IMG/VR virus record: IMGVR_UViG_3300049016_000030
Coordinates: 1 to 37,987 of that record
Length of the DNA stretch: 37,987 nt
Reading direction: 5' to 3' (one strand)
DNA from: a virus
Taxonomy: Duplodnaviria > Caudoviricetes
Shown: piece after piece, positions 12,856-34,763 of the stretch
Layout of the letters: the number at the start of each line of letters is the position of its first letter
Position numbering within the stretch: position 1 is the stretch's first letter
Translations under genes and position numbers: made by a program
The notes under the pieces: generated by a model
What the model was told of the DNA's origin: nothing
What the model saw: the letters and a program-made list of their open reading frames with translations, nothing else
Database searches by the model: none

Positions 12856-13019
12856 TGAGATGGCCGCGAGGCAAATACAACGGACGCCGGATTATCGGGC
12901 TATCGGTTGAGTGTAAATGCTATCTGATGCACTGGTATTGGCTGCCACACAAAACAAAGCTTATGAGCGGGTTTCACTGGCTCTGCTTTAGCGTGTGGTT
13001 CATGTGGGTTTACGAATAA
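12855..13019 (+). CDS. 54-aa Trp-rich hypothetical protein
   Basis: TAATG coupling; MRWPRGKYNGRRIIG... Confidence 0.55.
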   Translation: MRWPRGKYNGRRIIGLSVECKCYLMHWYWLPHKTKLMSGFHWLCFSVWFMWVYE

Positions 13020-13060
13020 CCGCCTGCGCGTACCCACAGCGTGGCGGCGAGGAAGGGAAT

Positions 13061-13270
13061 ATGAATCTAAGGAACAATCCGAATATCGACTGGGATAAAC
13101 GCCGAGCGCTGGAGACGCAATATGACGCCGCGGACGACGCCGGTCATATCGGGCACTGCGATTCTTGCCAATCAAAGGATACCGTCCTGTGTTTGAACTG
13201 CGGGTTTTGTTTTAGGTATTGCCATCCGTTCGATGATTGCGAGACAGCGCCAGTGTTTTACGAGGACTGA
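13061..13270 (+). CDS. Small Zn-finger protein
   Basis: CDSC, CLNC, CFRYC; purine-rich RBS. Confidence 0.6.
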   Translation: MNLRNNPNIDWDKRRALETQYDAADDAGHIGHCDSCQSKDTVLCLNCGFCFRYCHPFDDCETAPVFYED

Positions 13271-13714
13271 ATGACGCTACACCTACAGCCAATTGAATGG
13301 GACGAGGCTTGCGAGTTTATTCGCAGGCATCACCGACACCATCCGCCGCCACAGGGCTGGAAGTTTGGCGTTGCGGTGAATGACGGCGAAAACGTCGTCG
13401 GCGTCGCCATTATTGGCCGTCCGGTAAGCCGTCACTTTGATAATGGTTGGACGTTGGAGGTTACAAGGCTGTGTGTACTGGAAGGCTATCCGAACGCGGC
13501 GAGCAAACTGTGGGCAGCGGCGTGGCGCGCAGCGAAGGCGCTGGGATACAGAAGAATGGTTAGTTACACATTGCCTGACGAAAGCGGGACATCTCTGCGA
13601 GCTGCGGGGTGGAAAGAAGTGGGATTGGCTGGCGGGGGAAGTTGGAATAAGCCTAGTCGGCCACGAGTGGATAAAGCACCGACTGTGCAAAAGAAACTAT
13701 GGGAGGCTGCGTAA
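13271..13714 (+). CDS. XF1762/Mom-like GNAT-fold putative DNA base-modification enzyme
   Basis: EACEFIRRHHRHH...GVAIIGRPVSR...LEVTRLC...YTLPDESGTSLRAAGW. Confidence 0.8.
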   Translation: MTLHLQPIEWDEACEFIRRHHRHHPPPQGWKFGVAVNDGENVVGVAIIGRPVSRHFDNGWTLEVTRLCVLEGYPNAASKLWAAAWRAAKALGYRRMVSYTLPDESGTSLRAAGWKEVGLAGGGSWNKPSRPRVDKAPTVQKKLWEAA

Positions 13715-13776
13715 TGACTTCACGCAAACGAGACTGGGCGGCGATGAAGCGCAACGCTGAAGATTGAAGATTTTTC

Positions 13777-13805
13777 TTGTACCCGGCTGTCTTATATCTT
13801 AGAAT
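13777..13805 (+). promoter_or_regulatory. Sigma70-type promoter
   Basis: TTGTAC-17 nt-TAGAAT, 10 nt before the HTH start codon. Confidence 0.6.
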
Positions 13806-13815
13806 AGTCTGCGTT

Positions 13816-13983
13816 ATGAGACTTGGAAATATACTGCGGGGCTGGCGACAGTCCCAAAAACTTGACATTCGATCCGTGGCCGCCGACATCGGAATCAGCC
13901 ACGGCACTCTGTCCCGAATTGAACGTGGCGAGAACGTTGACGGGGCAACTTTAATCAAACTTCTATTGTGGCTTTTATCTTGA
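13816..13983 (+). CDS. Small XRE HTH regulator
   Basis: LRGWRQSQKLDIRSVAADIGISHGTLSRIERG. Confidence 0.85.
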   Translation: MRLGNILRGWRQSQKLDIRSVAADIGISHGTLSRIERGENVDGATLIKLLLWLLS

Positions 13984-13994
13984 ATGGAGGCGCC

Positions 13995-14201
13995 ATGAAC
14001 GCTCAGGAAGCATACGAACACTACGACAAAACCGGCGAGGACGTTTTCCTCTTTACCAAGAACGATGTAACCCTGAAGGTTGTTTTCGTTACCGACGCGG
14101 GCGACGTGTACGTGCCGAGGCTTGGAAAAGGGTTTTTGGTGCAGAACTTCTATGACGGATGGAAAGCCAACCCGATAGGAAAATCAGACCCGCTCACATA
14201 A
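13995..14201 (+). CDS. Hypothetical protein
   Basis: GGAGG RBS before ATG 13995. Confidence 0.6.
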   Translation: MNAQEAYEHYDKTGEDVFLFTKNDVTLKVVFVTDAGDVYVPRLGKGFLVQNFYDGWKANPIGKSDPLT

Positions 14202-14218
14202 CCTATATTATGCACGAC
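14191..14218. other. dif/res-like recombination site
   Basis: CGCTCACATAA-CCTATA-TTATGCACGAC: CATAA-N6-TTATG core, as in E. coli dif. Confidence 0.6.
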
Positions 14219-15055
14219 ACAGAACTAAACAACTTAGACTCTCTTATGGCTGGTTGGCTCGATAGCGGACGCCGTAGCAGCGCTCACACACAAGAGGCGT
14301 ACAAGCGGGACGTGCGCGCTTTTGTGGCCTATTCCCGCAAGCCAATCAAAGAGACTGAACCGGGCGATGTGATCGGATATCAGGCGTACTTGCGCCAACA
14401 GGTCGGAACCCCGGCAACTGAATACCGCAAGCTCTCCGCACTGCGAAGCTTCTTCAAATACCTGAAGCTAACCAAGGAAATCAAAGAAGACCTGGCCGTG
14501 ATCATCAAGACGCCGAAGGTTCAGAGCAATTTCAAAGCGAAGGCGCTGAGCGTGGCCGAGATTCAGGCCATCATTGACGCCGCCGCGCCCAGCCCGCTCG
14601 ATTCCCTGCTGCTGCGAATGCTGTATGTGACAGGCGGGCGGATTTCTGAAGTCCTGGCTCTCACGTGGGCACACCTGAGAGCGGCGGACACTGGGGGCGG
14701 ATACGTCCACATTCTTGGCAAGGGCAAGAAAGAGCGAGAGGTCTATATCGGGCCGGAACTGTGGGCGGACCTGGACCGGCATATCACCGACGACGGCGCT
14801 GACGGGCACCTGTTTCAACTGGATCGCCACGAAGCAGCGGCAATGCTGAAGAAGGCCGCGAAGGCTGCAAAGATCACCAAAGCTGTCACGCCGCACGTCT
14901 TCCGGCATTCCCTGGCGACAAATCTTCTGGCGAGCGGAAAGGCCACGCTGATGCAGGTCCGCGACCAGCTTGGACATTCCGACATTTCAACCACGTCGCT
15001 TTATCTTCACGCTGAGGATCGCGCAGCAATGATTCGGGATATGCCGATTAAATGA
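14210..15055 (+). CDS. XerC/XerD-like tyrosine recombinase (resolvase type, no arm domain)
   Basis: SAHTQEAY, TGGRISE, GKGKKER, TPHVFRH, LGHSDISTTSLY. Confidence 0.93.
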   Translation: MHDTELNNLDSLMAGWLDSGRRSSAHTQEAYKRDVRAFVAYSRKPIKETEPGDVIGYQAYLRQQVGTPATEYRKLSALRSFFKYLKLTKEIKEDLAVIIKTPKVQSNFKAKALSVAEIQAIIDAAAPSPLDSLLLRMLYVTGGRISEVLALTWAHLRAADTGGGYVHILGKGKKEREVYIGPELWADLDRHITDDGADGHLFQLDRHEAAAMLKKAAKAAKITKAVTPHVFRHSLATNLLASGKATLMQVRDQLGHSDISTTSLYLHAEDRAAMIRDMPIK

Positions 15056-15068
15056 GGAGACAAAAACG

Positions 15069-15326
15069 ATGACGCAATGCGAACGATGCGATCGTGTAGT
15101 CCACCGCCGCCAGCTTTGCCATCACTGCGGATTTTATGTCTGCTGGGAGTGCTGGGATAGGCGCGAAGATTCTTGCGCGTGCGAGCCGGGCCATAAGCCG
15201 GAAAACTGTATTCAGTTGAATTACTTGAAAAAGGTTGGCCGCGCCCGGTTTATGCGGACCGTCGTGGCGCGGCTGAGAACACAGGCAGGAATGCCGCTGC
15301 TGCGTGGAATGCGGTATAGGCCATAG
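15069..15326 (+). CDS. Zn-finger hypothetical protein
   Basis: CERC, CHHC, CWEC; GAGGAG RBS. Confidence 0.65.
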   Translation: MTQCERCDRVVHRRQLCHHCGFYVCWECWDRREDSCACEPGHKPENCIQLNYLKKVGRARFMRTVVARLRTQAGMPLLRGMRYRP

Positions 15327-15341
15327 AGAAAGGAAAGCAAC

Positions 15342-15602
15342 ATGAAAACAGCAGCCAAGACAATTGCGGCAAGAGCAATCGACGACGTGCGCGGCGTGGT
15401 TATCGGTGGCGATTCCGTCCAAGCCGCTCTCTTCTACGACGGCAGGCAGCAAGGGTCGGACGTTTACGCCGACTCCGACCAAGAGGCCGTTGAGAAATGC
15501 AAGGCGATGCGCGACGAGCGGGTCAAAGAGCTTGGTGGTCATCCCTGCTACCTCTATCAAGAACCTGAGTTGTGGGAAGTGAGGATTTATGACCGACTTT
15601 GA
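15342..15602 (+). CDS. Hypothetical protein
   Basis: AAGGA RBS. Confidence 0.6.
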   Translation: MKTAAKTIAARAIDDVRGVVIGGDSVQAALFYDGRQQGSDVYADSDQEAVEKCKAMRDERVKELGGHPCYLYQEPELWEVRIYDRL

Positions 15603-15726
15603 ACTGAAGAAAAACCTATGGAAACGCCGCCTAACCCGCCCCCGCGCGGTGGAGAAAGAACGTGGGTACGGAATCGGGGTTTCTTACCCATATGCACAAT
15701 CTCATGGGTACATTGAAGGGAGCATT

Positions 15727-15933
15727 ATGACTGTAAAAGAAGTGAAAGAGGCACTAGATAAATATTACGCAAGAGATCTTGGCGCGCTGCCTGTTGGGTA
15801 TTTCAAAGACAACGGCGAATTCGTTGAAATAAGAACACTGATTCGTGTTGTGGATGATTATGCAGGTGAAGTTATTAAGGTCGACCTCGATTGGCAGAAC
15901 GAAGAGGCGCAAATCGCGGAAGAGAGAGAATGA
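15727..15933 (+). CDS. Small acidic hypothetical protein
   Basis: GGGAG RBS before MTVKEVKEALDKY; alternative start at 15589. Confidence 0.55.
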   Translation: MTVKEVKEALDKYYARDLGALPVGYFKDNGEFVEIRTLIRVVDDYAGEVIKVDLDWQNEEAQIAEERE

Positions 15934-15994
15934 AATAACTTCCCCGCGCGGTGGCCGCTGCCCGCGAAGGGAGGGGTAAACGAGGAGAACAACG

Positions 15995-16309
15995 ATGAAA
16001 ATCAAAGACTGTCCACGCTGCGGCAAACCCTGCCGCGCCGAAAAGTCCGGCAATCAGAACGCCAGACCGGTACGCAAATCCGACAATGGAATGTGCCTCG
16101 AATGCACGGCGACGAGCGTGATTATGAGCCTGCCGAGCGCGGGAATGTTCCCAAAAGAGGCCATGCTTGCGCCACATATCCAAGCTCAATTTGCGGCCGT
16201 CCTGCGCGCTGGAAACGCCGACAGCGACGCCCACGAAGTAGACTGGAATCGGCTGGTCGAGAATTGGGATCTGCCGTTCCCGCGCAAGTTCGCGCCTGAA
16301 CGTATTTAA
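15995..16309 (+). CDS. Zn-ribbon hypothetical protein
   Basis: CPRCG...MCLEC; GAGGAG RBS. Confidence 0.7.
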   Translation: MKIKDCPRCGKPCRAEKSGNQNARPVRKSDNGMCLECTATSVIMSLPSAGMFPKEAMLAPHIQAQFAAVLRAGNADSDAHEVDWNRLVENWDLPFPRKFAPERI

Positions 16310-16343
16310 CCGCGAAGGTAAACAGTGGCAGAAAGAGGGACAA

Positions 16344-16706
16344 ATGATTCAACCAATCACACTTGGAGAACTGATCGAGCAACTATCGAAGTGCAATAAG
16401 ACCGCCCATGTCTATTTTGACTTCTGCGGGCTGCGTCCGACCGGACTGGGCAGTTATCGTGGCTACTACGATCAATTGGCGCTTGGATGGAAAGAGGAAG
16501 GGCTGGTAACTGTTGGGGACCTGCTGGCAGAGTGTCAGAGCGCAATCGGCCAGACTTACGAGGGCTACAAAGGCGGCGAGTTCAAAATGAGCAAATCTAC
16601 GCCCGTCTGGGCGGCGAATTATGGGCGCTCCGACAGTACGGCAATCAAGAAGATAGAGAATTTAGGCGACTATCACGTCATTATCGTGACGCGGTATATG
16701 AAATAA
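16344..16706 (+). CDS. Conserved phage hypothetical protein
   Basis: SYRGYYDQLAL...YEGYKGGEFKM...TPVWAANYG, a motif set recalled from other phage proteins. Confidence 0.7.
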   Translation: MIQPITLGELIEQLSKCNKTAHVYFDFCGLRPTGLGSYRGYYDQLALGWKEEGLVTVGDLLAECQSAIGQTYEGYKGGEFKMSKSTPVWAANYGRSDSTAIKKIENLGDYHVIIVTRYMK

Positions 16707-16787
16707 CCCCGCGCGGCGAACGGCGCCGGCTGGAAGCGGGGATGCGGCGTAGAGCTTGCGCGAACGTGGGAACGATACGAGGTATTC

Positions 16788-17426
16788 ATGACTGCAACTC
16801 AAACAATTTACGCTGCCGCTGGCTCCGGCGACACAGCCGGAACCTGCCGCCTGTGCGGCGCTGAGGGGACCGGCCAACTCTTCGATAAATGGGTGAAAGA
16901 CGCCTTCACGAATTTCGACCTACTGCAAGGTGGCGAAATCGCCTGTCACGCCTGCCTGTTCTGCGCCGAGGAGAAAAGCGTCTTGATTCAAACCAAGCTC
17001 GGCAAGGATAAACCGCAAAAGACGCGCAACTATTCGCACTTCGTTTTGCGCGGCGAATGGTTTCCGCTCTCGAAAGGCGACAAGCGAAAGATGCGCGAAT
17101 TGCTCAGCCAATCGCCAGAGGTTGCGGTGATCGCAGAATCCGGACAGAAGCATCTTTGCTTTCGCGCTCGCCCTGGCTGGTGGCAATTCGAGGAACAGGC
17201 GATGCTTTCCTGCTGGGATAAAGTCAATTCCCTGCTGCCGGTTATCGAAGAACTCATGGCGGACTTCAGTAAATCTGAAATCGAATCGGATCACTACCTG
17301 CAATATCGAATTATCAAATTCGGCGTCGAGCGCTGGCGGAAACTATCAGAGTCCCTGCGACCAGTCCGCCTCGCGCCGCATTTTCAACTCGCGCTATTCC
17401 TGGCGCAGAAAGCCGAGGACGAATGA
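16788..17426 (+). CDS. csf1: Type IV CRISPR-Cas large subunit Csf1 (Cas8-like)
   Basis: N-terminal CRLC...FTNFD...CHAC Zn site, SGQKHL motif; first gene of the csf operon. Confidence 0.8.
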   Translation: MTATQTIYAAAGSGDTAGTCRLCGAEGTGQLFDKWVKDAFTNFDLLQGGEIACHACLFCAEEKSVLIQTKLGKDKPQKTRNYSHFVLRGEWFPLSKGDKRKMRELLSQSPEVAVIAESGQKHLCFRARPGWWQFEEQAMLSCWDKVNSLLPVIEELMADFSKSEIESDHYLQYRIIKFGVERWRKLSESLRPVRLAPHFQLALFLAQKAEDE

Positions 17427-17794
17427 CACACGAAGAAATAGCCGAAAACCTATTAACCCCGCTCTGGCAAGGGATTGACGCCGGATACAAGGCCAAATAT
17501 TCGCTCACGATCTGGCAGCAATTCGAAGACAATATCCGCTCGGCGGCCTATACGAGCAGCGCGGCGGACTTTCTCTCAAGGATCAAGACGCGGCTGGGAA
17601 TTGTGATTCGCGGTGACGACCTGGCCAAAATCACGAGCATTATTACCGCTGGCGAGGATCGCGCATTACTCAAAATGCTTCGCGAGCATTCTTCGCTTTT
17701 AGTCGTACTCGTTCGCGCGGCCAATGAAGAGCGGCGCGCGGAATGGCACAAACAAATGGACGCAACGAAGACCGCGAAGCAGAACGCGGCGTAA
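17423..17794 (+). CDS. cas11: Type IV-B small subunit Cas11 (Csf4)
   Basis: 123-aa alpha-helical ORF between csf1 and csf2 (IWQQFEDNIRSAAYT); ATGA overlap. Confidence 0.7.
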   Translation: MTHEEIAENLLTPLWQGIDAGYKAKYSLTIWQQFEDNIRSAAYTSSAADFLSRIKTRLGIVIRGDDLAKITSIITAGEDRALLKMLREHSSLLVVLVRAANEERRAEWHKQMDATKTAKQNAA

Positions 17795-17802
17795 GGAGAC
17801 TT

Positions 17803-18777
17803 GTGGAAACAATCGTATTTGAAGGCGAACTGCTCGCGCTGACCTCAATTGCGCACAATGGCGGTCAATCATTCGGGATCGAATCAAAACTTAGACGCGA
17901 ACGATTCGTCCAGCCGGACGGAACCGTCGAGGAAGTGCCCGTAATTTCAGGCAATGGCCTACGTGGAATGCTGCGCGACCGTGGGATGTGGCATATGTGC
18001 CGGCAGTTAGGCTATGGCGTGGACGAAGAGAACGGCAAGGTATTGGGCCTGAGTCTTTCCGCCTTTTACTTTCTCTTTTCTGGCGGCGCGCTCACTGAAG
18101 CCGGCAGTGGCGGGATTGACGTTGAGTATGCGCGGAAACTGCGCGAGACGATTCCGCTGATTTCACTCTTCGGCGGCGCCGTCGGGGCGCAGATACTGCC
18201 GGGAAAGTTGAAGGTTGGCAAGGCGATTCCGATTTGCGCCGAGACGATTCATTTGCTGCCGAAGACCTACCAGGAACGCGCCACGCCTTCAATTTGGGAC
18301 TTCCTGCAAACCGAAATGTATACGCGCAAGGACGATGAACGAAACGAGAAACTGCGCACGGTGATCGAAGGAAAGGCGCTGAAGCAGATTGCAGGCGCCC
18401 CGGCAGCGCTATTCGAGGCGGCGCCGGTCGAGGTCGCCGAGGCCGTCGAGAAGCGCAAGCCGCAGCAAATGATGTATCTCACCGAGACCTTCGCAGCCGG
18501 AACACTCTTCTACTGGAAATTGATTCTCGAAGACCTGACGGACGTGGAATACGACGCCTTTATGACCGTGCTCGTTGAGTTCTCGAAAATGCCCTACGTC
18601 GGCGGCAAATCGGCCGTAGGACTCGGCGAAGTGGCAATCAAGCTCGGTCAGGGTATCCAGATCGATTCGCGGCTGAAGGCTGAAGCAACGGAACTCGCGC
18701 GGCCGGCTGGGATGGCATATCACGAGCATTTAAAAAGCCGTGGCGGCGATATTCGGAAGATTCTGGAAACGGTATGA
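17803..18777 (+). CDS. csf2: Type IV Cas7-family RAMP Csf2
   Basis: LTSIAHNG, VPVISGNGLRGMLRD, LFSGG, PLISLFGG, YTRKDD, Gly-rich loop GGKSAVGLG; AAGGAG RBS with GTG 17803. Confidence 0.9.
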   Translation: METIVFEGELLALTSIAHNGGQSFGIESKLRRERFVQPDGTVEEVPVISGNGLRGMLRDRGMWHMCRQLGYGVDEENGKVLGLSLSAFYFLFSGGALTEAGSGGIDVEYARKLRETIPLISLFGGAVGAQILPGKLKVGKAIPICAETIHLLPKTYQERATPSIWDFLQTEMYTRKDDERNEKLRTVIEGKALKQIAGAPAALFEAAPVEVAEAVEKRKPQQMMYLTETFAAGTLFYWKLILEDLTDVEYDAFMTVLVEFSKMPYVGGKSAVGLGEVAIKLGQGIQIDSRLKAEATELARPAGMAYHEHLKSRGGDIRKILETV

Positions 18778-19586
18778 CCGATACGATACCGCGCGCAAAA
18801 CTGGCGCTATGGGCAGGTTGGCGATACTACCGCAGGCTCGCGCTGGAATATCCCGAAGATTTTCAGCAGGCGGCGGCGCTGCTCGCGCTGTCGTCGGTTG
18901 AAGTATCGGACGATAAAGAAGCGTTCCGGCTCATCACTCGCGGCTTTGCGCGAGTCTGCCGCTCTTACGGGTATCGCTATCATCCACAGGCCGGATGGAT
19001 CAGGGGCGAAAGCTACGCAAGCGTAAGGCCCGCATATCTATGCAAGTGCGGGCGAAAGTCGTTCAGCGCCAAACACTGCGGAGCTTGTCGAAGTCGTGAG
19101 TATCGCGAACGAGGGCCGAAAGCGCGGAAAGAACGCGCGCCGAAATCGCCGCCGCTGTGGAACTGCGCCAACTGTGGCAAGTCGTTTGAGAAAGCAAAAA
19201 GGCGAATGCGATCAGATCAGAATATTTATTTCTGCTCGACGGCTTGCTACCACGACGCGCGCTCCAGGGAGGTCTGGCGGTTGACCGCGCAGGCGAATAT
19301 CACGAGGCACGCGGTCGAGCGGTTTTGTGAGCGGGTAATTGCGTGGCGTCCTGAGCGGGCGCTTGCCGCGATTCGCAGAGGATTATCGAAACCGATCGCG
19401 ATGATTCGCAAACGAAAAGGCTGGGAAGCGACGTGCCGGATAGGCGCGCTTGAATTTCGCGTGCATCTCAAACGAAACGCTGAGAATTCGCTTGACGCCG
19501 TGACGGTGCTCGAAAGCCGCGCGGATAACGATCAAATGCGAGCGGAAAGGAGGTCGCGCCGAGATGAATCAAGCAGAAAGTCATAG
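18774..19586 (+). CDS. ORF X: helical N-domain, two Zn fingers and a RelE/BECR-like (DUF4258-like) putative RNase
   Basis: CKC...CGAC; CANC...FCSTAC; ITRHAVERFCER...DAVTVL; overlaps both csf2 and cysH. Confidence 0.6.
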   Translation: MTDTIPRAKLALWAGWRYYRRLALEYPEDFQQAAALLALSSVEVSDDKEAFRLITRGFARVCRSYGYRYHPQAGWIRGESYASVRPAYLCKCGRKSFSAKHCGACRSREYRERGPKARKERAPKSPPLWNCANCGKSFEKAKRRMRSDQNIYFCSTACYHDARSREVWRLTAQANITRHAVERFCERVIAWRPERALAAIRRGLSKPIAMIRKRKGWEATCRIGALEFRVHLKRNAENSLDAVTVLESRADNDQMRAERRSRRDESSRKS

Positions 19587-20322
19587 AGAATCCTGTTTAT
19601 TACGCGCCAGACTGGCGGGCTTTGCACGATTGCTAGGGCGAACTGAGGCGATAATTCGCGAGGCGTTTAGCCAATCCGCAAGACCCTATGTCGCGCTGAG
19701 TGGCGGCAAGGACTCGACCGTTCTACTCTCGCTCGTCCGCGAGGAAAGGCCGGATACCGCGGCGATCTTCAGCGACGATGAATGGAATTTCCCCGAGACG
19801 ATGGCGTACCTGGATACGGTTCCGAACCTTACCCGCGCCGCTTCGCGCGTTCGCCATGCGTCCTGGTTTACGAGTTGGGAGAGTGGGCCGGTAGGCCTAC
19901 CGGCCGATACAATCTGGCTCGACGCAAAACAGGGTGACGGGATTCCATCGTTCGCGCGAGGTCGCGGCTTCGATTTGGCGTTTATCGGGCTGCGAAAAGA
20001 AGAGGCCACATACAGGCGTCTGCACCTATGCGGGCGCGGGACGATATTCTATTGCCACACTCACCAGGCAATCGAGTGCAATCCGCTGGCAGATTGGAAG
20101 GTCGAGGACATATGGGCATATCTGCTAAGTAGAGAAATCCGATACAACGCCGCTTACGATCGGATGACTGGTCTAAACGTTCCTCTTCCTGAACAACGCG
20201 TCGGGCCGTTCGCCGTCGAAAAGGCCGTTGGCCAGGGCTCGCTCGCGATCATCAAGCGCGGCTGGCCTGAATTGTGGAATCAATTTACTGAACGATACCC
20301 AGAGGCTTCGAACTATGCGTAA
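19564..20322 (+). CDS. cysH: CysH-like PAPS-reductase-family protein of type IV-B systems
   Basis: PP-loop SGGKDS, GLRKEE...R, NPLADW...DIWAY...YNAAYD. Confidence 0.88.
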   Translation: MNQAESHRESCLLRARLAGFARLLGRTEAIIREAFSQSARPYVALSGGKDSTVLLSLVREERPDTAAIFSDDEWNFPETMAYLDTVPNLTRAASRVRHASWFTSWESGPVGLPADTIWLDAKQGDGIPSFARGRGFDLAFIGLRKEEATYRRLHLCGRGTIFYCHTHQAIECNPLADWKVEDIWAYLLSREIRYNAAYDRMTGLNVPLPEQRVGPFAVEKAVGQGSLAIIKRGWPELWNQFTERYPEASNYA

Positions 20323-20995
20323 AAACGATTTCCTGCGAATCACCGCGAATTTCCAAACGCCTGTAATCTGCGACGACCGGCTGCCGCTCGACGGGATTAT
20401 TTTCTATCAGGTTATGCGCGAACGGTATGGTTTCGAGTCTTCCACGCAGGCCGGCGTTGCGGCGCTGGCTGACGGCGTGGACAAGCGCGATTGGATGCCG
20501 TTTGACGTGCATTACAAAAACGTCAACGGCGAAAACTTCTGGTATTACGCCTGCTCTTTCGCGCGCTGGGTCGGGACGGTCGCCGAGGGCCGGGACCATT
20601 GGGTGAAGCGCTTCGACCAGCAATTCAGCGATGTGATCGACTTTCAAGGCAAGCGTGGAAAGATCGTCACCGCGAACGGTAAATACAAGGGCTATCGAAT
20701 GCCTGTCTTTACGCGTCACGCGCTCGCGGCTCGCTGGTACTGCGTCGGCGACCGGCGCGAGTTGGAGCGGCTATTGCCCCACGTCCAGAGCGTCGGGAAA
20801 AAGACTTCCCAGGGTTACGGGGTGGTTCGCGACTGGCAGATCGAGCGCTGGCATGCGGACTGGAGCACGCGCGGTCCGCAAGGACTGATGCGCGCACTGC
20901 CGGCTGATACCGGCGTCAAGGTTGGCTTTCGGCCCAGCTACTGGTTTGCGCCGAATCAGGCGATTTGCGAGATGCCGGCAGATTATTCCGACTGA
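20315..20995 (+). CDS. csf3: Type IV Cas5-family RAMP Csf3
   Basis: LRITA...LPLDGII, YKGYRMP, WYCVGD...LL...VGKKTSQGYGVV; start is ATG 20315. Confidence 0.87.
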   Translation: MRKNDFLRITANFQTPVICDDRLPLDGIIFYQVMRERYGFESSTQAGVAALADGVDKRDWMPFDVHYKNVNGENFWYYACSFARWVGTVAEGRDHWVKRFDQQFSDVIDFQGKRGKIVTANGKYKGYRMPVFTRHALAARWYCVGDRRELERLLPHVQSVGKKTSQGYGVVRDWQIERWHADWSTRGPQGLMRALPADTGVKVGFRPSYWFAPNQAICEMPADYSD

Positions 20996-21007
20996 CGAGC
21001 TTGCGCG

Positions 21008-21052
21008 AAAAAAAAACAGCCTGCCGAGGGGATCAATCCGGCAGGCTTTTGA
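21008..21052. terminator. Bidirectional intrinsic terminator
   Basis: A-run, stem AGCCTGCCG/CGGCAGGCT, T-run; lies between convergent operons. Confidence 0.8.
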
Positions 21053-21073
21053 TTTGTTGGTTGGGGTTGCGGA

Positions 21074-21316
21074 TTACGCCTTCCGCGCTTCCAGAACCCC
21101 GCGTAATTGACGAGCGCGCCAGATCGCCTCCCGGACTTCCGCACGCGCTGAACGATTGGAACGATTCGCCTGAATGCCCTTCAAGAGCATGCCCAGGACG
21201 CGATTGATTTGCTGGTCAGACGGTCGCCGCTGGGCCATGACGTTTTTCGCGGCCCCAAGGGGATCGATTACAGTGGCGCGCTCGCCAGCGAATGAATGCT
21301 TAATGATGATTGTCAT
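21074..21316 (-). CDS. Small basic hypothetical protein
   Basis: GGAGG RBS. Confidence 0.65.
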   Translation of the reverse strand: MTIIIKHSFAGERATVIDPLGAAKNVMAQRRPSDQQINRVLGMLLKGIQANRSNRSARAEVREAIWRARQLRGVLEARKA

Positions 21317-21347
21317 GGTGCTTTCCTCCAGTTAATTGTTTTGGTTA

Positions 21348-21515
21348 TCACGCCACCGCCGCTGCAAACCACAAGGCGCCCATTGAGGGCGTTTGCGTAA
21401 TGGCCGGCTTCGGCGCCTCGCGTATCGTTACGGGCGAGGGTACACTCTCAACCCTCGGGGCCACAGGGACATAGATAATAGCGGGTTCAGATTCTTTTAG
21501 GGTGATTTCAGTCAT
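21348..21515 (-). CDS. 55-aa hypothetical protein
   Basis: Not in the track; ATG directly after the SWIM gene stop. Confidence 0.45.
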   Translation of the reverse strand: MTEITLKESEPAIIYVPVAPRVESVPSPVTIREAPKPAITQTPSMGALWFAAAVA

Positions 21516-21854
21516 TTAGACCTTCTCTCCATTTACAATCATGGCGTTACCGCTGCGCTGGCCGTACCAGGCGCGGGTTCTGGTGGTCTTCCTTGTTACC
21601 TGCCTGCGCATCGATTGGACCGCGATATTGACGCTGGCGGCGGCTGCGACGTGGTAGCAAATTCCCTTCGCCGGGCAATCACACGATGCCAGCTTGTGAC
21701 CGTTGGCGACCGCGAAGCGCACGGTATAAACATCTCCCCTACTCCCCGTCACGGCGTAGGTCCGTTCATCGGCGTTGATGACCCGAACGCGCGGGCGAAC
21801 GGTTTTTGCTCTTTCAATCGCTTTGGTCATTTTGCTGATTTCGAGTCTGATCAT
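21516..21854 (-). CDS. SWIM zinc-finger protein
   Basis: YAVTGSRGDVYTV...SCDCPAKGICYHVAA (CxC-n-CxH). Confidence 0.8.
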   Translation of the reverse strand: MIRLEISKMTKAIERAKTVRPRVRVINADERTYAVTGSRGDVYTVRFAVANGHKLASCDCPAKGICYHVAAAASVNIAVQSMRRQVTRKTTRTRAWYGQRSGNAMIVNGEKV

Positions 21855-21880
21855 CGCGCTTCCCTGTCCTTTCGTGATTT

Positions 21881-22058
21881 GATCCTTGAAAACTCAATGA
21901 AGGGCTGGACTTTTGCGGCTTTCGGAGTCTGTTTCAAGGTTTGTGATTGTGCGCGGCATTTTCGATTCCCCGAAGGTTATCAGCCGGAAGCCTTTCACCT
22001 CTCTTCGCGCGTCCCTGCGGCTCTCACTCACCAGCCATTCATTGAATTTTCAAGGATC
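21881..22058 (-). ncRNA. Candidate structured leader/ncRNA closed by a 28-bp stem
   Basis: Arms 21881-21908 and 22031-22058 are 26/28 complementary; internal C(UUCG)G hairpin; begins about 20 nt after the predicted transcription start. Confidence 0.55.
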
Positions 22059-22084
22059 GTTTCGTTTCCCTCACCAGTAAGGAT

Positions 22085-22113
22085 ATTCTACGCGAACGCG
22101 GATAATATTGCAA
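22085..22113 (-). promoter_or_regulatory. Leftward sigma70-type promoter
   Basis: TTGCAA-17 nt-TAGAAT. Confidence 0.7.
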
Positions 22114-22137
22114 TAGGCAGACGCAAATAATCTGTGC

Positions 22138-22166
22138 TTGCGCGTAAAAATAATTCAGCGTATATT
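22138..22166 (+). promoter_or_regulatory. Promoter of the HTH gene
   Basis: TTGCGC-17 nt-TATATT. Confidence 0.6.
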
Positions 22167-22182
22167 AGGAGTGGAGGTAGTA

Positions 22183-22395
22183 ATGGAAAAACTTACAGTC
22201 GCGGAAGCGGCGAAACTTAAAGACTGTTCGAAAAGCACGATCTTGCAGTTAATACGAAAGAATCTCTTGCCAGCCGAACGCAAGGGGCCGATATTCTTGA
22301 TTCCCCGATACGCCGTCGAAGCATATCAACTGCCGGGGCCTGGGCGTCCGCGCGGTAGAAAAAACTTACCGAAAAAAGAAGATTTATCTTCGTAG
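22183..22395 (+). CDS. HTH_17 (Xis/MerR-like) regulator with AT-hook-like tail
   Basis: LTVAEAAKLKDCSKSTILQLIRKNLLPAERKG; PGRPRGRK; GGAGG RBS. Confidence 0.85.
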   Translation: MEKLTVAEAAKLKDCSKSTILQLIRKNLLPAERKGPIFLIPRYAVEAYQLPGPGRPRGRKNLPKKEDLSS

Positions 22396-22399
22396 CCTA

Positions 22400-22428
22400 T
22401 TGCAATAATGTACGCACTCGCGTATATT
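22400..22428 (+). promoter_or_regulatory. Rightward sigma70-type promoter
   Basis: TTGCAA-17 nt-TATATT; inverted copy of the promoter at 22085-22113. Confidence 0.7.
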
Positions 22429-22484
22429 TCCGTCATCGGAAGCGGCAATAACGCCGCGCGAAACTTGAAACGGGAGATAAGAAA

Positions 22485-22919
22485 ATGGCGACAGAGATCA
22501 CAATCAGCGGCCGGACGATCACACTGGAAGAGGACAAGAACTTCAACCTAATTCCTGATTTTACAGTAGGCGATGGCCGTGCGGTCGTCTTCACAACGCC
22601 AAGCAAGTACGCGTCAGGTCACTCGATCAAGGTAAAAGGCAATACCTTCTTGCACGACGTTCGGACGGTTAAAGGCGTCACTGATTTGGTTCGCCCCTCC
22701 TCGATCTCTGATCCGCGCGAGAAAGACAGCCTGCCGAGTGATGTTACGCCAGAAGAGTTGGCTTTTCTCGCGGAGATCAGAGACGCGCTCGACGCTGAAT
22801 ACCAAGCCGAGCAAGCCGCCCGAAAAGCAGCAAAGGCTGAACGCGCCGCCAGCGTTCTTGCCGCAGAAAAAGAGAAACTGGCAGGAATGGACAACGTTAA
22901 GATTTACGACGAAGACTAG
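22485..22919 (+). CDS. Hypothetical early protein
   Basis: GGGAG RBS; first gene after the promoter. Confidence 0.75.
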   Translation: MATEITISGRTITLEEDKNFNLIPDFTVGDGRAVVFTTPSKYASGHSIKVKGNTFLHDVRTVKGVTDLVRPSSISDPREKDSLPSDVTPEELAFLAEIRDALDAEYQAEQAARKAAKAERAASVLAAEKEKLAGMDNVKIYDED

Positions 22920-22982
22920 CAATATTCACACCGGGGCGCATGCCGCGCGAAACTTGAAATGGCAACAAGGGAGATAAAGAAA

Positions 22983-23330
22983 ATGGCCGACGTGGCCGCC
23001 GAACTTATCAGAAAGCGCGCAGCCGAACAGGGCTATGAGTTGGTCGAGGACTTCGACGCGCAGGTTGCAGAATGGCGAGACTATTTCAATCAACCCTTCC
23101 CGGCCCAGATCGACGAAGATAAGCGAAGACGCTGTGCGGGCGTTATAGACACATCGATCGCTCTAAATATAGTTCTAAGCGCGCAAGATCGATTACGGCG
23201 ATCGCCTATCCAAGATCCGGAATATAGCGACACTTTGAAGCTATTGATTGGCGCCGAAGACGCGGCTGAGAAGGCCATGGACGAAGCTGCGCGCCGGTAT
23301 CGCGCCCAGCCAATCGAGCCGCCGGAATAA
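22983..23330 (+). CDS. Hypothetical acidic helical protein
   Basis: GGGAG RBS before ATG 22983. Confidence 0.7.
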   Translation: MADVAAELIRKRAAEQGYELVEDFDAQVAEWRDYFNQPFPAQIDEDKRRRCAGVIDTSIALNIVLSAQDRLRRSPIQDPEYSDTLKLLIGAEDAAEKAMDEAARRYRAQPIEPPE

Positions 23331-23344
23331 CTGGAGGAGAAGTT

Positions 23345-23569
23345 ATGAAAGCTAACATTACACGAGCATCCGACAGGTACAGCGGGCCAACAGAAGAAAG
23401 AACGTTCGATACGCTTGAGCAGTTGCGGGACTTTATTCTTTCAACTGGCCATTCCGTCATTATTTCGGTGCCAGAGAAGGTTCAGTTCGCCGCGAGCGGT
23501 GGTGTTGACAGTGTAGAGGTTATACCCGATACGCTCAACATTGAGATTTATGACAGCCACATCGAATGA
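23345..23569 (+). CDS. Small acidic hypothetical protein
   Basis: GGAGGAG RBS; TLEQLRDFI...IEIYDSHIE. Confidence 0.7.
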   Translation: MKANITRASDRYSGPTEERTFDTLEQLRDFILSTGHSVIISVPEKVQFAASGGVDSVEVIPDTLNIEIYDSHIE

Positions 23570-23593
23570 ACGAAAGCTCGCCAGCAGGCTTCC

Positions 23594-23872
23594 CTACTTC
23601 CTTACCATCTCCGTCGGCCGCGAGTTATTACTTGCCACCGGCGGCTCACGTCTGACGACAATCTCTTTCCGGTTCAATTCGCCCGTTCGCGTCTGCGTCA
23701 TTACCTCGCCCGCGCAAGTAATAAACACCGCATCGCCGATCACCTGGACCGTCCAGCCGTCCACGTCGAGATAGCCTTTTGCCGGCGGCGTCACTGCCGG
23801 CGCGGCGATCTGCCGCGTCTCGGGAGTGAAAGATCGCGGCTTTAGCGGTAAGATATGGTGACTGTCCATCAC
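23594..23872 (-). CDS. Hypothetical protein at the end of the late operon
   Basis: GTGA overlap with the upstream tail gene. Confidence 0.55.
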   Translation of the reverse strand: MMDSHHILPLKPRSFTPETRQIAAPAVTPPAKGYLDVDGWTVQVIGDAVFITCAGEVMTQTRTGELNRKEIVVRREPPVASNNSRPTEMVRK

Positions 23873-26535
23873 AAACTCGCCTCCACAAACCGAAATGATA
23901 AATCGATCGCACAGGTGTCATACCCCTCGTGATTGATTGCCGAGTCGAACCATCCGACCTTGCGAATGTCGCGCACTTTATCCTCCAAAATAAACAGCTT
24001 GCCGTACCCTTGCGCGTCCCAGAAGGCGTCAACCGCGTCAGATTCAGCTAAGGTCCGCTGGGTGAATTTGATTTCGTAATCATCAAAAATGCCGCTTTTC
24101 TCGCGGACAATTCGAGATTTGCGGTCTTCCGACATGCTGATCAGAGACGTTCTGTTCCGCGTCCATGTCAGCGGTAGGGTTGGATCATTCAAGGGAAAGA
24201 TCGGCAACACCAATACGTCGCGCGTTACACTAAAAACCCCATTACTTGCCGTAATCTTCGCCGTCTGGCCAACACTTGCCGGCGCTGTCCAATTCCCCGT
24301 CGCGCTATTGATGCTCCCCGCGTTCGCGGTCCAGACTAGCGGATTCGGTTTCAGGGCCGTGCTAATTCTTCCCTGCACGCTCGCATTCGCCAGCGTCGCC
24401 GTCGTGGCCGCGTAGGCCCCCGCGACCGCCTTTTCGCCGGTCACCACGGCAAATCCCCCGCCGTTCCCTTGGGTTGTCGCAACGTCGGTTCGCTCGGTCA
24501 GGTTGGTCAAATCCGCGTTTACATACCCGCTCACCTGCGGAGTCGCCGTATCCGTCTGGTGCGCCACCGCCGCCTCAATCAAGCAATTAGGCGCGGTTGT
24601 CGTATCACCGGGGATACTGACAGCCGTACTACTCGCCCCCGTATTCCCCGCCGTCACGTCCCACGGGTTGCCGGTGCCGATACAGTCGCGATACGCAAAA
24701 ATCTGCGCAATAACATGTTCGCCAGGGTCCGCTACGGTCGGCGCGCTCACAGTCCCGCTCTCCGGGACGCGGAGCCAAAATATACTCAGCCGAGTTGATG
24801 TTGCGCCCGCTGCCGTGCCGGTGCCTTGTGGTGAATCGGCAGACACCGCCCAGCCGCCCGTTGGCGTGGCGACGGCTTCATTAGCCGACTCGACGAAGAG
24901 GCGCAGGATGTCCTTTGGCTGGATACCGGCTGGTAGCCCAGGGACGACAGCGCCGGTGCCCTCTGCGACCGCGCCAGCCGCGACAAAACTCGGCTTAAAT
25001 GGAATGCTCGTGCCCCAATCAATTGTCTCGCCCGGTCCGACAAAGGTGAAACTAGGGGTGATCACTGCGGAAATATTCAGCACCAGATCCGCAACCTGGT
25101 TCCCTGTCGCGGCCGTAGCGCGCACGATTGTGAGTCCGGCTATTGCTGGCGCCGTGAATTCGTTGCCGTTAAATGATCCGCCGCCGCTGAGGATTGACCA
25201 TGTTGGCGGCACGTCCGCCACGTCGTAGTTTGTTTGGAACCTGGTCACACTACCTGGTGACACATCTCTCACCAGATCCCCGGTAATCTGCAACGGCGGA
25301 ATCGTGATCACGGCCTCGGCAATTTGTAGATTCGGAATCTTGCCAACCTGATCGAAGCTACACACGCCGTCAAACAGCACGAAATCCATCCCGTTCAGTA
25401 CTAACCCCTGCAAATCAAGCAGGCTGACAGGAAACTCCAACCGCGTCCATTGTCCCAACGGCGGCAGGTCGCCAATTCGTCGTCGCTGCGGCGTTCCGTC
25501 GAGTCCGACATTTATCAAATTGGCGCCCCAGTAGGCGCGGAAGGGCAATGATGCCGGCGCGTCCCGCGTGGTCGCGAACTCAAGCATTATTTCCTGCGGC
25601 GGATTCGTTGTGTCGGGGAATACCCAGCAGTAGAGGCTATCCCCTGGATTGATTTGCAGCGTGGCGGTTGCGCCGTGGAAGCCGTGAAAGTGCGTGCCTG
25701 CGGCGTTACTGGACTTGTGGCGTAGCGTCCCGGTCTGCGGCGTCGGGCTCGTATTTCCAAACGTCCACGCGTCCCCGCCTCCGGTAATCTGCGTGCCGCC
25801 GGTCGGCACGGCGTCCTCCATCCATACGTCAACGCCGGGGTCGATTTGTCCAACGAGCGCATAAATCCCCGGCGTGTCGCCGTCGGAATAGACGGTCGCT
25901 AGCGCTGGGCCGTTCGTCGAAAGCGAGCCTTCGTCGGGAGTAGTGAACGTGACGACGGATCTCAACTGCCAATCGCCGGAGAGTAGGGGCGCTGGGATCG
26001 TGGCGGGATCGACCGATACAGGCAGCGTGAGACGTGCTTTATACGTTGCTGGATACGTGACGGCGGACGCGAAGGTTGTAATAGAGTGTTGCAAGACATC
26101 GTTGATAAACAATCTAAAAGCATTCCCAACCTCGATCTTAAACCTGTCCCCTACCGCCTGCGTGCGGTTGAGGGTGGTAAGCAAGGTGCCGGCTTGGTCG
26201 CGGATTTCGATCGTGGCGGCCTTGATTATCACGCGATACTCCCATGGCACTGTGGCGCTAAGAATCGCCGTCCATTGAAGAGATCCCGTACTTGTCGGCA
26301 AGCAGAGGCTGGTTAATGCGAATTCAATTGACCCAATCCCGCCAACGAGTTGATGCGCCCCACTCCCCTCGACGAATGGCTGCGCGCCCCAGCTCAGCCG
26401 CAAGCTATAATCAGATTGAACCAACCCGTCTGTAATATCAGCCCACATAGGCGGCGGCGGCGTGGCGCGGGCGGTGAAGGATTGCTCGTCGCCGGGAAAG
26501 AGGGTTACAGCTTTAGGGAAGAGTTCGAGGTTCAT
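23869..26535 (-). CDS. Multi-domain tail protein (Ig-like/beta-sandwich domains; distal-tail-like C-terminus)
   Basis: 888 aa, Thr/Gly/Ala-rich, located in the tail module. Confidence 0.75.
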   Translation of the reverse strand: MNLELFPKAVTLFPGDEQSFTARATPPPPMWADITDGLVQSDYSLRLSWGAQPFVEGSGAHQLVGGIGSIEFALTSLCLPTSTGSLQWTAILSATVPWEYRVIIKAATIEIRDQAGTLLTTLNRTQAVGDRFKIEVGNAFRLFINDVLQHSITTFASAVTYPATYKARLTLPVSVDPATIPAPLLSGDWQLRSVVTFTTPDEGSLSTNGPALATVYSDGDTPGIYALVGQIDPGVDVWMEDAVPTGGTQITGGGDAWTFGNTSPTPQTGTLRHKSSNAAGTHFHGFHGATATLQINPGDSLYCWVFPDTTNPPQEIMLEFATTRDAPASLPFRAYWGANLINVGLDGTPQRRRIGDLPPLGQWTRLEFPVSLLDLQGLVLNGMDFVLFDGVCSFDQVGKIPNLQIAEAVITIPPLQITGDLVRDVSPGSVTRFQTNYDVADVPPTWSILSGGGSFNGNEFTAPAIAGLTIVRATAATGNQVADLVLNISAVITPSFTFVGPGETIDWGTSIPFKPSFVAAGAVAEGTGAVVPGLPAGIQPKDILRLFVESANEAVATPTGGWAVSADSPQGTGTAAGATSTRLSIFWLRVPESGTVSAPTVADPGEHVIAQIFAYRDCIGTGNPWDVTAGNTGASSTAVSIPGDTTTAPNCLIEAAVAHQTDTATPQVSGYVNADLTNLTERTDVATTQGNGGGFAVVTGEKAVAGAYAATTATLANASVQGRISTALKPNPLVWTANAGSINSATGNWTAPASVGQTAKITASNGVFSVTRDVLVLPIFPLNDPTLPLTWTRNRTSLISMSEDRKSRIVREKSGIFDDYEIKFTQRTLAESDAVDAFWDAQGYGKLFILEDKVRDIRKVGWFDSAINHEGYDTCAIDLSFRFVEASL

Positions 26536-28527
26536 TTAGGGTAGTACCAACGCCTCCTGTACGGGCGTGTGCGCAGTGTCGGAATAAAGATCGCCGGAGA
26601 TTTGCTGCAATGTGAATTCCACTTCATCCGCGGATGTCTCGGCGCCTTGCACTGTGATATCGACAACAAGGCAGAGTTGGTGGTCCCATCGTGGTAGCGA
26701 ATGGCTCACCGTCACGAAATCGCCGGGAATTACATGGATGGATGTCGCATCGCCGACCAGCGTCGCAAAGACGGAACTGTCGTGCTCGATTCGCGCCTGG
26801 CGCTCTAATAGCCGCTGAGCCTGACTCTGCCGCATGTTGGCGAAACCGCGCTGGCTGCGAACTTCGCCTAATCGACGGATTGAGTCTTCGCGTTTCACAG
26901 AGGTTGACACCTCGCCTAAAAACTCATCATCGAATTCTCTATATCTGGCAACAAAGAAATTCGGTGTTTGTCTTAAATCCTGCGGACTTACCTGCGGCGC
27001 GCGCGTGATGTTGGATTCGTTGAAATGGTGGACGGGAAGCTGATCCCCTGGCGGAACGAATAGCAACTGCTCCCCGTCGTCCTGCCAAAAGGTTGCCGAG
27101 AGACCGCAGATTTGATCCAACGCGTCAGCTAGCAGCAAATCTCCTGTAAACGCAATGTGAGCCTCAAAGCGTGGGATGAAAATATTCTCGCTGCCGTCCT
27201 TGTTCCATGGGATCAGCGCGCCGCAAAAATCTCTCCACCTTACCCAGCTCGGCCAGTCAATTCGCGCACGGAACTTTTGCTGAGCGAGATCGAGATCGTT
27301 TCTGAAGGTACGCTGGAAGAAGTTTAGGATTCGGTCGGCGGCCACACGCGCGGGGTTGGTGGAATAACCATAGCCAATCTGCTCTCCGGTCGCGTCGTAA
27401 TCGAAGGTTCGGCGAGTTTTGAATCTGCCGCGAAACTTATCGGGGCGGTCTTCAGCCGATTGATCCGTGTCGAGGCGGACAAAGATAATCGGCGTTCCTG
27501 AACCCGCTACGCCTATCGGCAAACTATCGGTCTCCCCTTGCTGTACATCCGCGAACGCTGAGGCAATCTGGCCACGGTGGAAATGGTAGCCGGGACTCAA
27601 GCTCCCCCTTACCTGGCTAACCTGATCAAACGCGGCGCCGCCGTCGAAGCAGTGAAACGCCATCCCGTTGATGGTAGCGCCTTCTAGTCCTAAATCACTG
27701 GCCGCGAAGCCGAGCCGCTGCCACGATCCGGTAGCAGGCAGCGAGGCGCTAATCTGGCGGCGCGAATCGGTTCCGTTAGTGCCGAGGTTGATCAAATTCG
27801 CGCCCCAATAGGCCCGGTGCTCCCAGGATGCGCCGACGCGGAACTCAAGTAAAACCTCCTGTGGCGGGCTGGCCGGATCGAGAAATACCCAGCAGAAAAT
27901 CGAGTCGCCCGGCGCTACGATTAGCGTTGTAGTGGCGTCTTGAAAGAAGTGTTGATGGTCGCCGGTTTTTACGGCCGATTGGTGAGAGTATTTACCGAAA
28001 AACGGCTTGGGATGATCGGAAACCCAGTTCCATCCGTCCTGGCCGGGATCGGCAACCGCCCCGGCGGGTAGCGCGTCTTCCACCCAGACGAAGACCTCAA
28101 AGCGGCGGGTAAGTTCTTCGCCTGCATGGTACGCCTTGACCACATCGTCCCACTCGCCATGCCCGCCTAGTCCACCATGTCCTTCCCCCAACGCCACCGT
28201 GTAATTATTCTCCGGCGTTACTGAATCATATTTGTGGGAGACAAGATTCCCTGCCACCAGGTGCTCCCCATAGGCGACAACCAGCGCTCCGCCCTCTTCA
28301 GTCTCGAACTGCTCGGCTAATTGATCAACTTGTTGCGGGCTGAGTCCGCCGCTAACCTCCTGTACGTTGATGACCGGCGTAGGCACGGGCGCGGGGGCGG
28401 GGTCCGTGGTGGTCTGCCCTGCCCCGCTCCCAGGATCTCTGCCGCCGATGGGCCCGCGATCAATCGGACCATTCACGTCTTCCCTTCGCACGTAGCACGG
28501 GCCGAATTTTATATAGCGTTTGAGCAT
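26536..28527 (-). CDS. Tail tip / baseplate hub-like protein
   Basis: VAYGEHLVAG, YSTNPA, SQAQRL...PGDFVTVSH typical of phage tail-tip proteins. Confidence 0.75.
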   Translation of the reverse strand: MLKRYIKFGPCYVRREDVNGPIDRGPIGGRDPGSGAGQTTTDPAPAPVPTPVINVQEVSGGLSPQQVDQLAEQFETEEGGALVVAYGEHLVAGNLVSHKYDSVTPENNYTVALGEGHGGLGGHGEWDDVVKAYHAGEELTRRFEVFVWVEDALPAGAVADPGQDGWNWVSDHPKPFFGKYSHQSAVKTGDHQHFFQDATTTLIVAPGDSIFCWVFLDPASPPQEVLLEFRVGASWEHRAYWGANLINLGTNGTDSRRQISASLPATGSWQRLGFAASDLGLEGATINGMAFHCFDGGAAFDQVSQVRGSLSPGYHFHRGQIASAFADVQQGETDSLPIGVAGSGTPIIFVRLDTDQSAEDRPDKFRGRFKTRRTFDYDATGEQIGYGYSTNPARVAADRILNFFQRTFRNDLDLAQQKFRARIDWPSWVRWRDFCGALIPWNKDGSENIFIPRFEAHIAFTGDLLLADALDQICGLSATFWQDDGEQLLFVPPGDQLPVHHFNESNITRAPQVSPQDLRQTPNFFVARYREFDDEFLGEVSTSVKREDSIRRLGEVRSQRGFANMRQSQAQRLLERQARIEHDSSVFATLVGDATSIHVIPGDFVTVSHSLPRWDHQLCLVVDITVQGAETSADEVEFTLQQISGDLYSDTAHTPVQEALVLP

Positions 28528-29177
28528 CAGATAATCTTGAATTTCACGGCGTTATCGAGGTATGGGAAGCCTCCGAACTTGGCGAACTTCAACGGGTCGC
28601 CGTGTCTCCCTTCACAACCGCCCGCGTCGTTGAGGAGGCCATTGCAGACTGACTCTGGTCCGACATATCCGCACTCCGGCCCTTTAAAAGCCCCGTGTAT
28701 CGCCCACTGACAGATTCGCGTTACTGTGCGATTCGGACCGACTGAAACCCCCGAATAACAATCCGCTACAACCGTCAACCTGACGGCGGTTTCTCCAATC
28801 TCCAGGCCCGTTACAACGCCGGTTAATAAAACCTTGTGAAACTCGGCTCCGGAATCACCATCTCTCCAATACCTCCCCACCTTCGCCTCGGCGCCGAAGA
28901 TGAACTGTCGAATGGCGAGAAGCTCGACGCCAAGATTTGTATCGACATTCTGCAAGTCCAAACTAGCCTGATTCGCGGCGCGCTGAATTGATGATCGGAT
29001 TTCGCTGATTCGGCGTAGGGATGGTTGCCAGACGACGCCGTTGAATTGAAGCGCGGCCGTCGCGAAGTAGTAGCTGCGGCTCGTCGCGCCCGTCACCACA
29101 AACAACTGCAGCGTGCTATGCGACTCGATGTTTCTCTGCAGGGCCTCCATCAGCCCCGCTGGCATTTTGCGTGGCAT
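28527..29177 (-). CDS. Minor tail protein, gpL-like
   Basis: C-terminal CQW...FKGPECGY...C...C...FGGFP Cys motif. Confidence 0.75.
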   Translation of the reverse strand: MPRKMPAGLMEALQRNIESHSTLQLFVVTGATSRSYYFATAALQFNGVVWQPSLRRISEIRSSIQRAANQASLDLQNVDTNLGVELLAIRQFIFGAEAKVGRYWRDGDSGAEFHKVLLTGVVTGLEIGETAVRLTVVADCYSGVSVGPNRTVTRICQWAIHGAFKGPECGYVGPESVCNGLLNDAGGCEGRHGDPLKFAKFGGFPYLDNAVKFKII

Positions 29178-29245
29178 CTACAGTTCCCTCTCTTGATCTT
29201 TAAGCGCCCAGAGCACTACGCGCCGTATTAGTTTTCGTAGCATCT

Positions 29246-34753: not shown

Positions 34754-34763
34754 TGATCACCTC

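Follow-up and report, generated by a model that had tools for sequence, protein, structure and literature searches.

The leader of an early phage gene carries a cassette (21881-22058, minus strand) in which a stem like those of rRNA operons in the likely host group encloses a worn look-alike of a CRISPR repeat and a 16-base match to another gene of the same phage. Taken together, the rRNA-like stem, the repeat look-alike and the self-match argue for a small RNA that would decoy host CRISPR machinery. We tentatively favor the reading, which falls short of an even chance, that the cassette yields an RNA acting on host type I-D/I-B Cas proteins.

The window we analyzed, 37,987 nt in all, is a whole IMG/VR entry, linear and about 58% complete, and it encodes tail proteins and two integrases, together with a type IV-B-like operon that has no array. 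DNA of this phage is present in soil metagenomes. Since the named homologs of its SWIM gene belong to Blastocatellia (Acidobacteria), where they lie in mobile elements, and since a csf2 gene 77% identical to that of the phage sits in a prophage-like contig of 1 of 401 genomes of this class, we infer that the host belongs to Blastocatellia. The SWIM zinc-finger early gene (21516-21854, minus strand) follows immediately downstream of the cassette. Between the cassette unit and the csf unit, a hairpin with A/T tracts on both flanks (21010-21055) is, by its sequence, a likely bidirectional terminator. Several other features of the record deserve mention. A 21-nt repeat at 22453-22473 and 22942-22962 lies before two rightward early genes, and contigs in two DNA runs, X14 and X16, pass from this repeat into different sequence, suggesting gene shuffling there. 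Two divergent promoter-like sites that are 83% alike (22089-22118 and 22395-22424) flank an excisionase-like HTH gene and may form a shared operator. A 16-nt direct repeat occurs within coding regions at 8175 and 8751, 576 nt apart, and the stretch 8425-8459 has 11- to 13-nt words in common with the cassette.

A preliminary description of this DNA had proposed a structured RNA closed by a 28-bp stem. The inverted repeat is as claimed: its arms, at 21881-21908 and 22031-22058, are complementary at 26 of 28 positions and have 122 nt between them. When the minus strand is folded, a U-G pair replaces one of the arm mismatches, and 27 of the 28 stem positions pair with probabilities of 0.92 to 1.0, leaving one U.C mismatch. 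On this strand 22031-22058 forms the 5′ arm, and inverse match and folding agree in making 21881-21908 the 3′ arm. The element has a folding z score of −3.5 against shuffles on both strands, and it is the sole stem of at least 20 bp (85% paired) with a 60- to 450-nt loop in the 38-kb window. The idea of a structured interior failed. Folded alone, the U-poor interior (21909-22030; 13% U) has a z score of +2.0, i.e., it folds more weakly than its shuffles; the proposed 9-bp GGCUUCCGG/CCGAAAGCC helix reaches a probability of 0.07 and the UUCG hairpin 0.35. The folding signal comes entirely from the closing stem. A covariance-model search found no match to any Rfam family. Likenesses to hammerhead, twister, pistol, Y RNA, 5S and VIPR, assessed by eye from consensus features, were dropped, and a CsrA sponge was rejected, CsrA being found in 0 of 5 genomes.

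The closing stem is probably an rRNA-style processing stem, a view that comes from setting it beside the rRNA operons of the presumed host order. The 5′ arm is headed by a boxA-like word, and such a word stands 113 to 217 nt upstream of 16S in 30 of 30 loci fetched (a 16S start was available in 35 of 81 genomes surveyed). In 4 of 4 host-order operons, boxA heads the leader-trailer helix, with its partner about 100 nt past 16S, and the 23S spacer arm of one operon is identical to the phage 5′ arm at 16 of 20 positions. When a boxA matrix made from six distinct host-order sites was run over 75,944 positions, the two arms ranked first and second, the 5′ arm leading, although a third site, within the tape-measure gene, came close (17.6 versus 17.8 bits). 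The resemblance to rRNA boxA in the preliminary description holds for the leaders of this order, the host class itself being our deduction, and the operon comparison lends good support to its RNase III-type processing stem, of which cleavage is predicted. In E. coli, boxA brings in an antitermination complex, and helices of this kind are RNase III substrates (PMC10250234). Genes for RNase III and NusB were present in 5 of 5 host-class genomes.

The likeness extends to architecture. As in the rrn leader (PMC10250234), a boxA-headed helix of about 28 bp closes an RNA, and the phage arms are close to the 16S and 23S arms of Blastocatellia. The phage cassette differs in that it encloses 122 nt of non-rRNA sequence, lies in a phage mRNA leader and has its boxA fully paired, whereas host 16S stems retain a G.G mismatch. 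An rRNA origin of the interior was rejected, since its similarity to four operons is about that of shuffles.

Upstream of the stem, at 22085-22113 on the minus strand, lies a sigma70-like promoter (TTGCAA-17-TAGAAT) that agrees with the consensus at 9 of 12 positions; its start probably falls near 22078. Four such promoter-like sites were found versus 1.8 in shuffles, and similar promoters lie upstream of SWIM homologs. The distance to the SWIM start at 21854 is about 224 nt, in keeping with the leader of about 220 nt described earlier. We compared this leader with those of 32 of 35 metagenome or virus SWIM loci (three had no upstream sequence, and one start was estimated), with 4 from genomes, and with another 24 that were located among 87 genomes of the order (four duplicates, three poorly placed). 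The leaders of SWIM homologs mostly consist of a promoter and a short leader without an insert. Many of them end in CACGAAAGGACA, as does that of the phage. By this comparison, the cassette is an insertion in an early-gene leader relative to most relatives. In two metatranscriptomes, contigs cover the SWIM gene at 21466-21633 and 21622-21805, a weak hint that the cassette/SWIM unit is transcribed. The region 12000-30000 is otherwise uncovered there, save for a 34-nt partial fit of a foreign contig, and the cassette has no RNA contig, though contigs cannot reveal the absence of a small RNA.

Within the interior, 21959-21986 (minus strand) resembles a degenerate type I-B/I-D CRISPR repeat with a UCG-loop hairpin and a predicted 8-nt handle, AUCGAAAA, at 21966-21959. 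The UUCG hairpin of the preliminary description sits inside this copy. Arrays at 30 loci, which lie in 29 of the 87 genomes of the presumed host order, gave us 27 repeats, and a family of six aligns at 21984-21960, the best of them in 22 of 27 columns, with a 2-nt gap and 6 of 8 handle bases. The inner A-U pair of the family's hairpin is U-G in the phage. Scores as good came from 6 of 3000 shuffles, from 3 of 150 random 220-nt windows and, its own piece included, from 7 of 1242 pieces of the phage. Among the hits of five repeat-family profiles in the phage, this one is the best (E 0.11 to 0.12); three other phage sites outscore it when individual repeats from other families are used. The family is flanked by type I-B genes in two genomes and by type I-D genes beside the best repeat, while a fourth flank gave no cas hit. 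No second repeat was found at crRNA spacing, the best candidate agreeing at 11 of 30 positions, and a further candidate unit of this kind, placed farther upstream within the cassette, was rejected as unsupported. Spacers of the host-order arrays match the phage at chance level only.

One base past the end of the repeat, on the transcribed strand, begins a 16-nt match to the phage itself. If a spacer of 36 nt is assumed (21923-21958, minus strand), its positions 2 to 17 (21957-21942) match 35079-35064 exactly, within a putative protospacer (35064-35083) in a 478-aa gene. This gene has no family hit, and its position suggests that it belongs to the tail module. Counting the extra base as a mismatched position 1, at 35080, makes the 5′ flank GTG (35083-35081). 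The type I-D PAM of Synechocystis is GTN, which this flank fits, and the Microcystis (M. aeruginosa) rule is GTH, which excludes it (both in PMC10212523). By chance, a 16-nt match arose in 14 of 5000 shuffles and 45 of 5148 host-order pieces, and GT stood at the flank position in 3 of 61 chance contexts. The 16-mer is common in host-order DNA, with 100 hits at up to 1 mismatch in 87 genomes versus 12 for a reversed control, and beyond the match only 6 of the 19 following bases agree. With position 1 mismatched at the sole phage site, the seed rule (positions 1 to 5 and 7 to 11 beside the PAM) does not hold there, and no seed match occurs at six cas-flanking host loci. No promoter-like site was found in 34500-35700, so the target is not at a promoter. 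No better target turned up in 61 contexts, obtained from 42 hits in viruses and from 30 of the 100 in host genomes, none of which extends the match, nor was a target found at a cas promoter. Each of these CRISPR signs is modest singly, and because the repeat, the self-match and the PAM were found after many tries, their joint odds are inflated. Taken jointly, they give a true CRISPR origin of the cargo a slightly better than even chance, and by that narrow margin the cargo would be a captured repeat-spacer unit.

We searched widely for relatives of the cassette. There was no homolog in GenBank phages or plasmids, and arm-pattern searches of IMG/VR gave none among the matches listed (of 99 and of 47). 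A DNA search of 301 Blastocatellia-class genomes returned two short matches (E 9e-4) and no cassette; a search of the same genomes by arm pattern returned MITE-like elements in one genome and no homolog. An nhmmer search over 2.2 Mb of fetched loci likewise found none. Without homologs, neither conservation nor covariation could be seen, and so the covariation check suggested in the preliminary description gave nothing. Four DNA runs, read as contigs, were identical where they cover the cassette, with no change, joint or inversion in the covered parts, and thus supplied no covariation either.

A second group of cassettes came to light in these comparisons. At the SWIM leaders of three loci, with the same leader start as in the phage, lies an unrelated insert, some 220 nt long, whose closing stem is boxA-like (L113:240-465, L125:480-710 and L126:1940-2160); genome G229 has a fourth member, located before a different gene (L293:1510-1700, on contig G229:C52). 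The inserts contain ACGG-rich repeated units in variable number, with conserved flanks and a variable center: identity is 88 to 97% in the flanks, 74 to 79% in the center and 78 to 93% in the neighboring gene. Their interiors are U-poor and poorly folded. The stem is 92% paired, with 0 two-sided changes among the 4 sequences; on the host-order matrix, the boxA-like word in it reaches only about 10 bits. No Rfam match was found, and two exact patterns found no member in IMG/VR. The two kinds of cassette show no interior similarity, and homology between them was rejected. We also rejected the idea that the second group mimics CRISPR handles, no arrays of that type having been found in 87 genomes. 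It is a candidate for a new small-RNA family. Long heptamer tandem arrays whose unit resembles the repeated units of this group occur in the Blastocatellia genomes G087, G235 and G012 (L455, L467 and L456).

The cassette ends 886 nt from the csf operon (16788-20995, plus strand; csf1, small subunit, csf2, a 270-aa gene, cysH-like gene and csf3), and a search of the 38-kb window for array-like repeats gave none, which bears out the earlier placement about 0.9 kb from an array-less Cas operon. The two form separate, convergent units. The csf hits all fall below curated cutoffs, and the gene order matches that of relatives; no Cas6 hit was obtained in the operon. We compared 51 csf2 loci of viruses, taking in as much as 10 kb to either side, the whole G302 record and contig G352:C34, the latter two being the closest csf2 relatives among those compared (74 to 77%). 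These loci contain no similar sequence and no boxA-bearing stem. Their 238 boxA-like words have no contiguous partner, the SWIM gene is absent from them (two short loci left out), and the repeat profile gives nothing better than E 0.8. Most of the compared loci have other hosts. Within the operon, the 270-aa gene (18774-19586) belongs to no family and has a homolog in G352:C34 only, among the loci searched. The CysH-like protein (19564-20322) shares only 24 to 48% identity with its counterparts in operons that have a csf2 49 to 74% identical to that of the phage, and the position of its gene relative to csf3 varies among operons.

The mechanism we prefer, the decoy of host Cas proteins, would run as follows. 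Transcription would proceed from the promoter at 22113-22085 through the cassette into the SWIM unit, and NusB/E would load on boxA before the 3′ arm is synthesized. Host RNase III would cut the stem, freeing the RNA and trimming the SWIM message, and a Cas6 cut would leave the 8-nt handle. The released RNA may then tie up CRISPR proteins of host type I-D/I-B systems, as a decoy that does not lead to cutting. Its repeat and spacer would descend from a host array whose spacer came from this phage lineage, with later blunting seen in the position-1 mismatch and the diverged distal half.

We rank this decoy ahead of a leader that acts only in cis, and that in turn ahead of a guide for the phage's own complex. 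In the cis-acting account, which we consider unlikely, the cassette mimics an rRNA leader, boxA and Nus factors providing antitermination and RNase III trimming the message, and the interior is either filler or the remnant of a defunct CRISPR unit. All of the packaging evidence (the boxA leaders, the helices, the matrix ranks, RNase III and NusB) fits this account, as do the unfolded interior and the RNA contigs that fall on the downstream gene only; a second word, CTTGAAA, which is handle- or boxA-like, occurs both within the interior and before two rightward early genes. The account sits poorly with the majority of SWIM relatives, which have no insert at all, and with a downstream unit of only about 0.85 kb, and it leaves the alignment of repeat, match and PAM unexplained; in the second cassette group, moreover, conservation is higher in the flanks of the interior than in the neighboring gene. 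That the processed RNA is instead a natural guide or ligand of the phage type IV-B complex, matured with host Cas6 and aimed at the tail-module gene or a rival phage, is improbable. Proximity speaks for it, 0.9 kb from an operon with neither array nor Cas6 hit, and so do published accounts in which IV-B complexes, whose source of RNA is still debated, are proposed to scavenge crRNAs (PMC8175902) and in which a viral IV-B locus carries a mini-array (PMC10848311). Against it, no such stem, similar sequence, SWIM gene or repeat of this family was found in the 51 viral csf2 loci, G302 or G352:C34, the cassette lies in a separate convergent unit, and both repeat and PAM indicate a host system of type I-D/I-B, the PAM fitting I-D. 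The guide-or-ligand role given in the preliminary description survives in part: the degenerate repeat and the PAM-flanked self-match are in favor of a Cas ligand, and co-occurrence with csf, at 0 of 51 loci and not in the prophage contig, is against the IV-B part. Because the RNA of IV-B is unknown and most compared loci come from other hosts, the link retains some likelihood. Its most specific form, in which a lone captured repeat-spacer unit, matured by the RNase III stem and host Cas6, guides the Csf/CysH complex, which has no nuclease, to the tail-module gene of the same phage, is more doubtful still.

Two further accounts need neither decoy nor guide. A MITE, an IS remnant or an invertible segment, with the arms as DNA ends, is very unlikely. 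The cassette is an insertion relative to most SWIM relatives, and MITE-like fold-backs of 200 to 270 nt with the similar word TCTTTGAAAA in their arms occur in Blastocatellia genomes (L156 and L157 in G229; L151 and L153 in G003). These fold-backs pair completely, unlike the phage loop. The cassette is single copy in the phage and absent from the 301 genomes searched, it has no clear target-site duplication, and neither joints nor strand switches appear in the contigs of the four DNA runs over the covered parts; within that coverage, the checks for mobile or invertible DNA named in the preliminary description came out negative. In two other fetched loci, L150 and L155, short membrane-peptide-like ORFs lie between complementary words, a layout that by eye recalls type I toxin-antitoxin loci. 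The least probable account is that the stem encloses a tiny gene of 45 codons from GTG 22031 or 21 from ATG 21959. An open minus-strand frame does run through the interior; U-poor sequence yields open frames by expectation, and the sole hit in 1.84 billion proteins is a repeat-protein artifact, with domains scoring at most 5 bits.

The decoy reading has several known neighbors. Like Racr, the solitary repeat units described in PMC10651486, the phage has one viral repeat-like unit with a promoter upstream and small early genes around it. Its repeat is degenerate, whereas Racr repeats are near-identical, and in the phage the unit is followed by a PAM-flanked self-match, enclosed in an rRNA-type stem and close to cas genes. 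The cassette motif was absent from nine supplementary files of that paper. With CreA/CreR and Cracr (PMC8501985; 10.1101/2023.03.10.532045; 10.1101/2024.10.29.618823), it shares a degenerate repeat, a possible one-handle form and a partial match near a PAM; the phage match lies mid-gene, outside any cas or toxin promoter. Membership in that group failed on the mismatched seed position 1 and on a target away from a promoter. The cassette is also comparable to viral mini-arrays (PMC11656645 and PMC10848311) as a virus-borne repeat and spacer for host Cas proteins. It has neither a second repeat nor a full-length target found in another virus, and with a best second repeat of 11/30 it does not qualify as two repeats around a spacer.

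The lambda N leader has a nut site and then an RNase III stem before an early gene. The order of promoter, boxA, RNase III stem and early gene is shared with the phage, but no boxB or N-like gene was identified in the phage, where boxA itself forms one stem arm.

Stems of the rRNA boxA type and virus-borne CRISPR repeat mimics are each known separately; their combination was not found in the literature searched. If our reading is right, the cassette would represent a new route to an anti-CRISPR or guide RNA, in which the host rRNA machinery gives the 3′ end and replaces the second repeat. Were the type IV-B guide correct instead, it would name both the RNA and the target for a system whose RNA source is open. 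For both host I-D/I-B Cascade and the phage IV-B complex, the cassette offers a defined candidate RNA with predicted cut sites and handle, a PAM and a target. The second cassette group suggests that mobile elements of Blastocatellia have put a small RNA in such a wrapper more than once.
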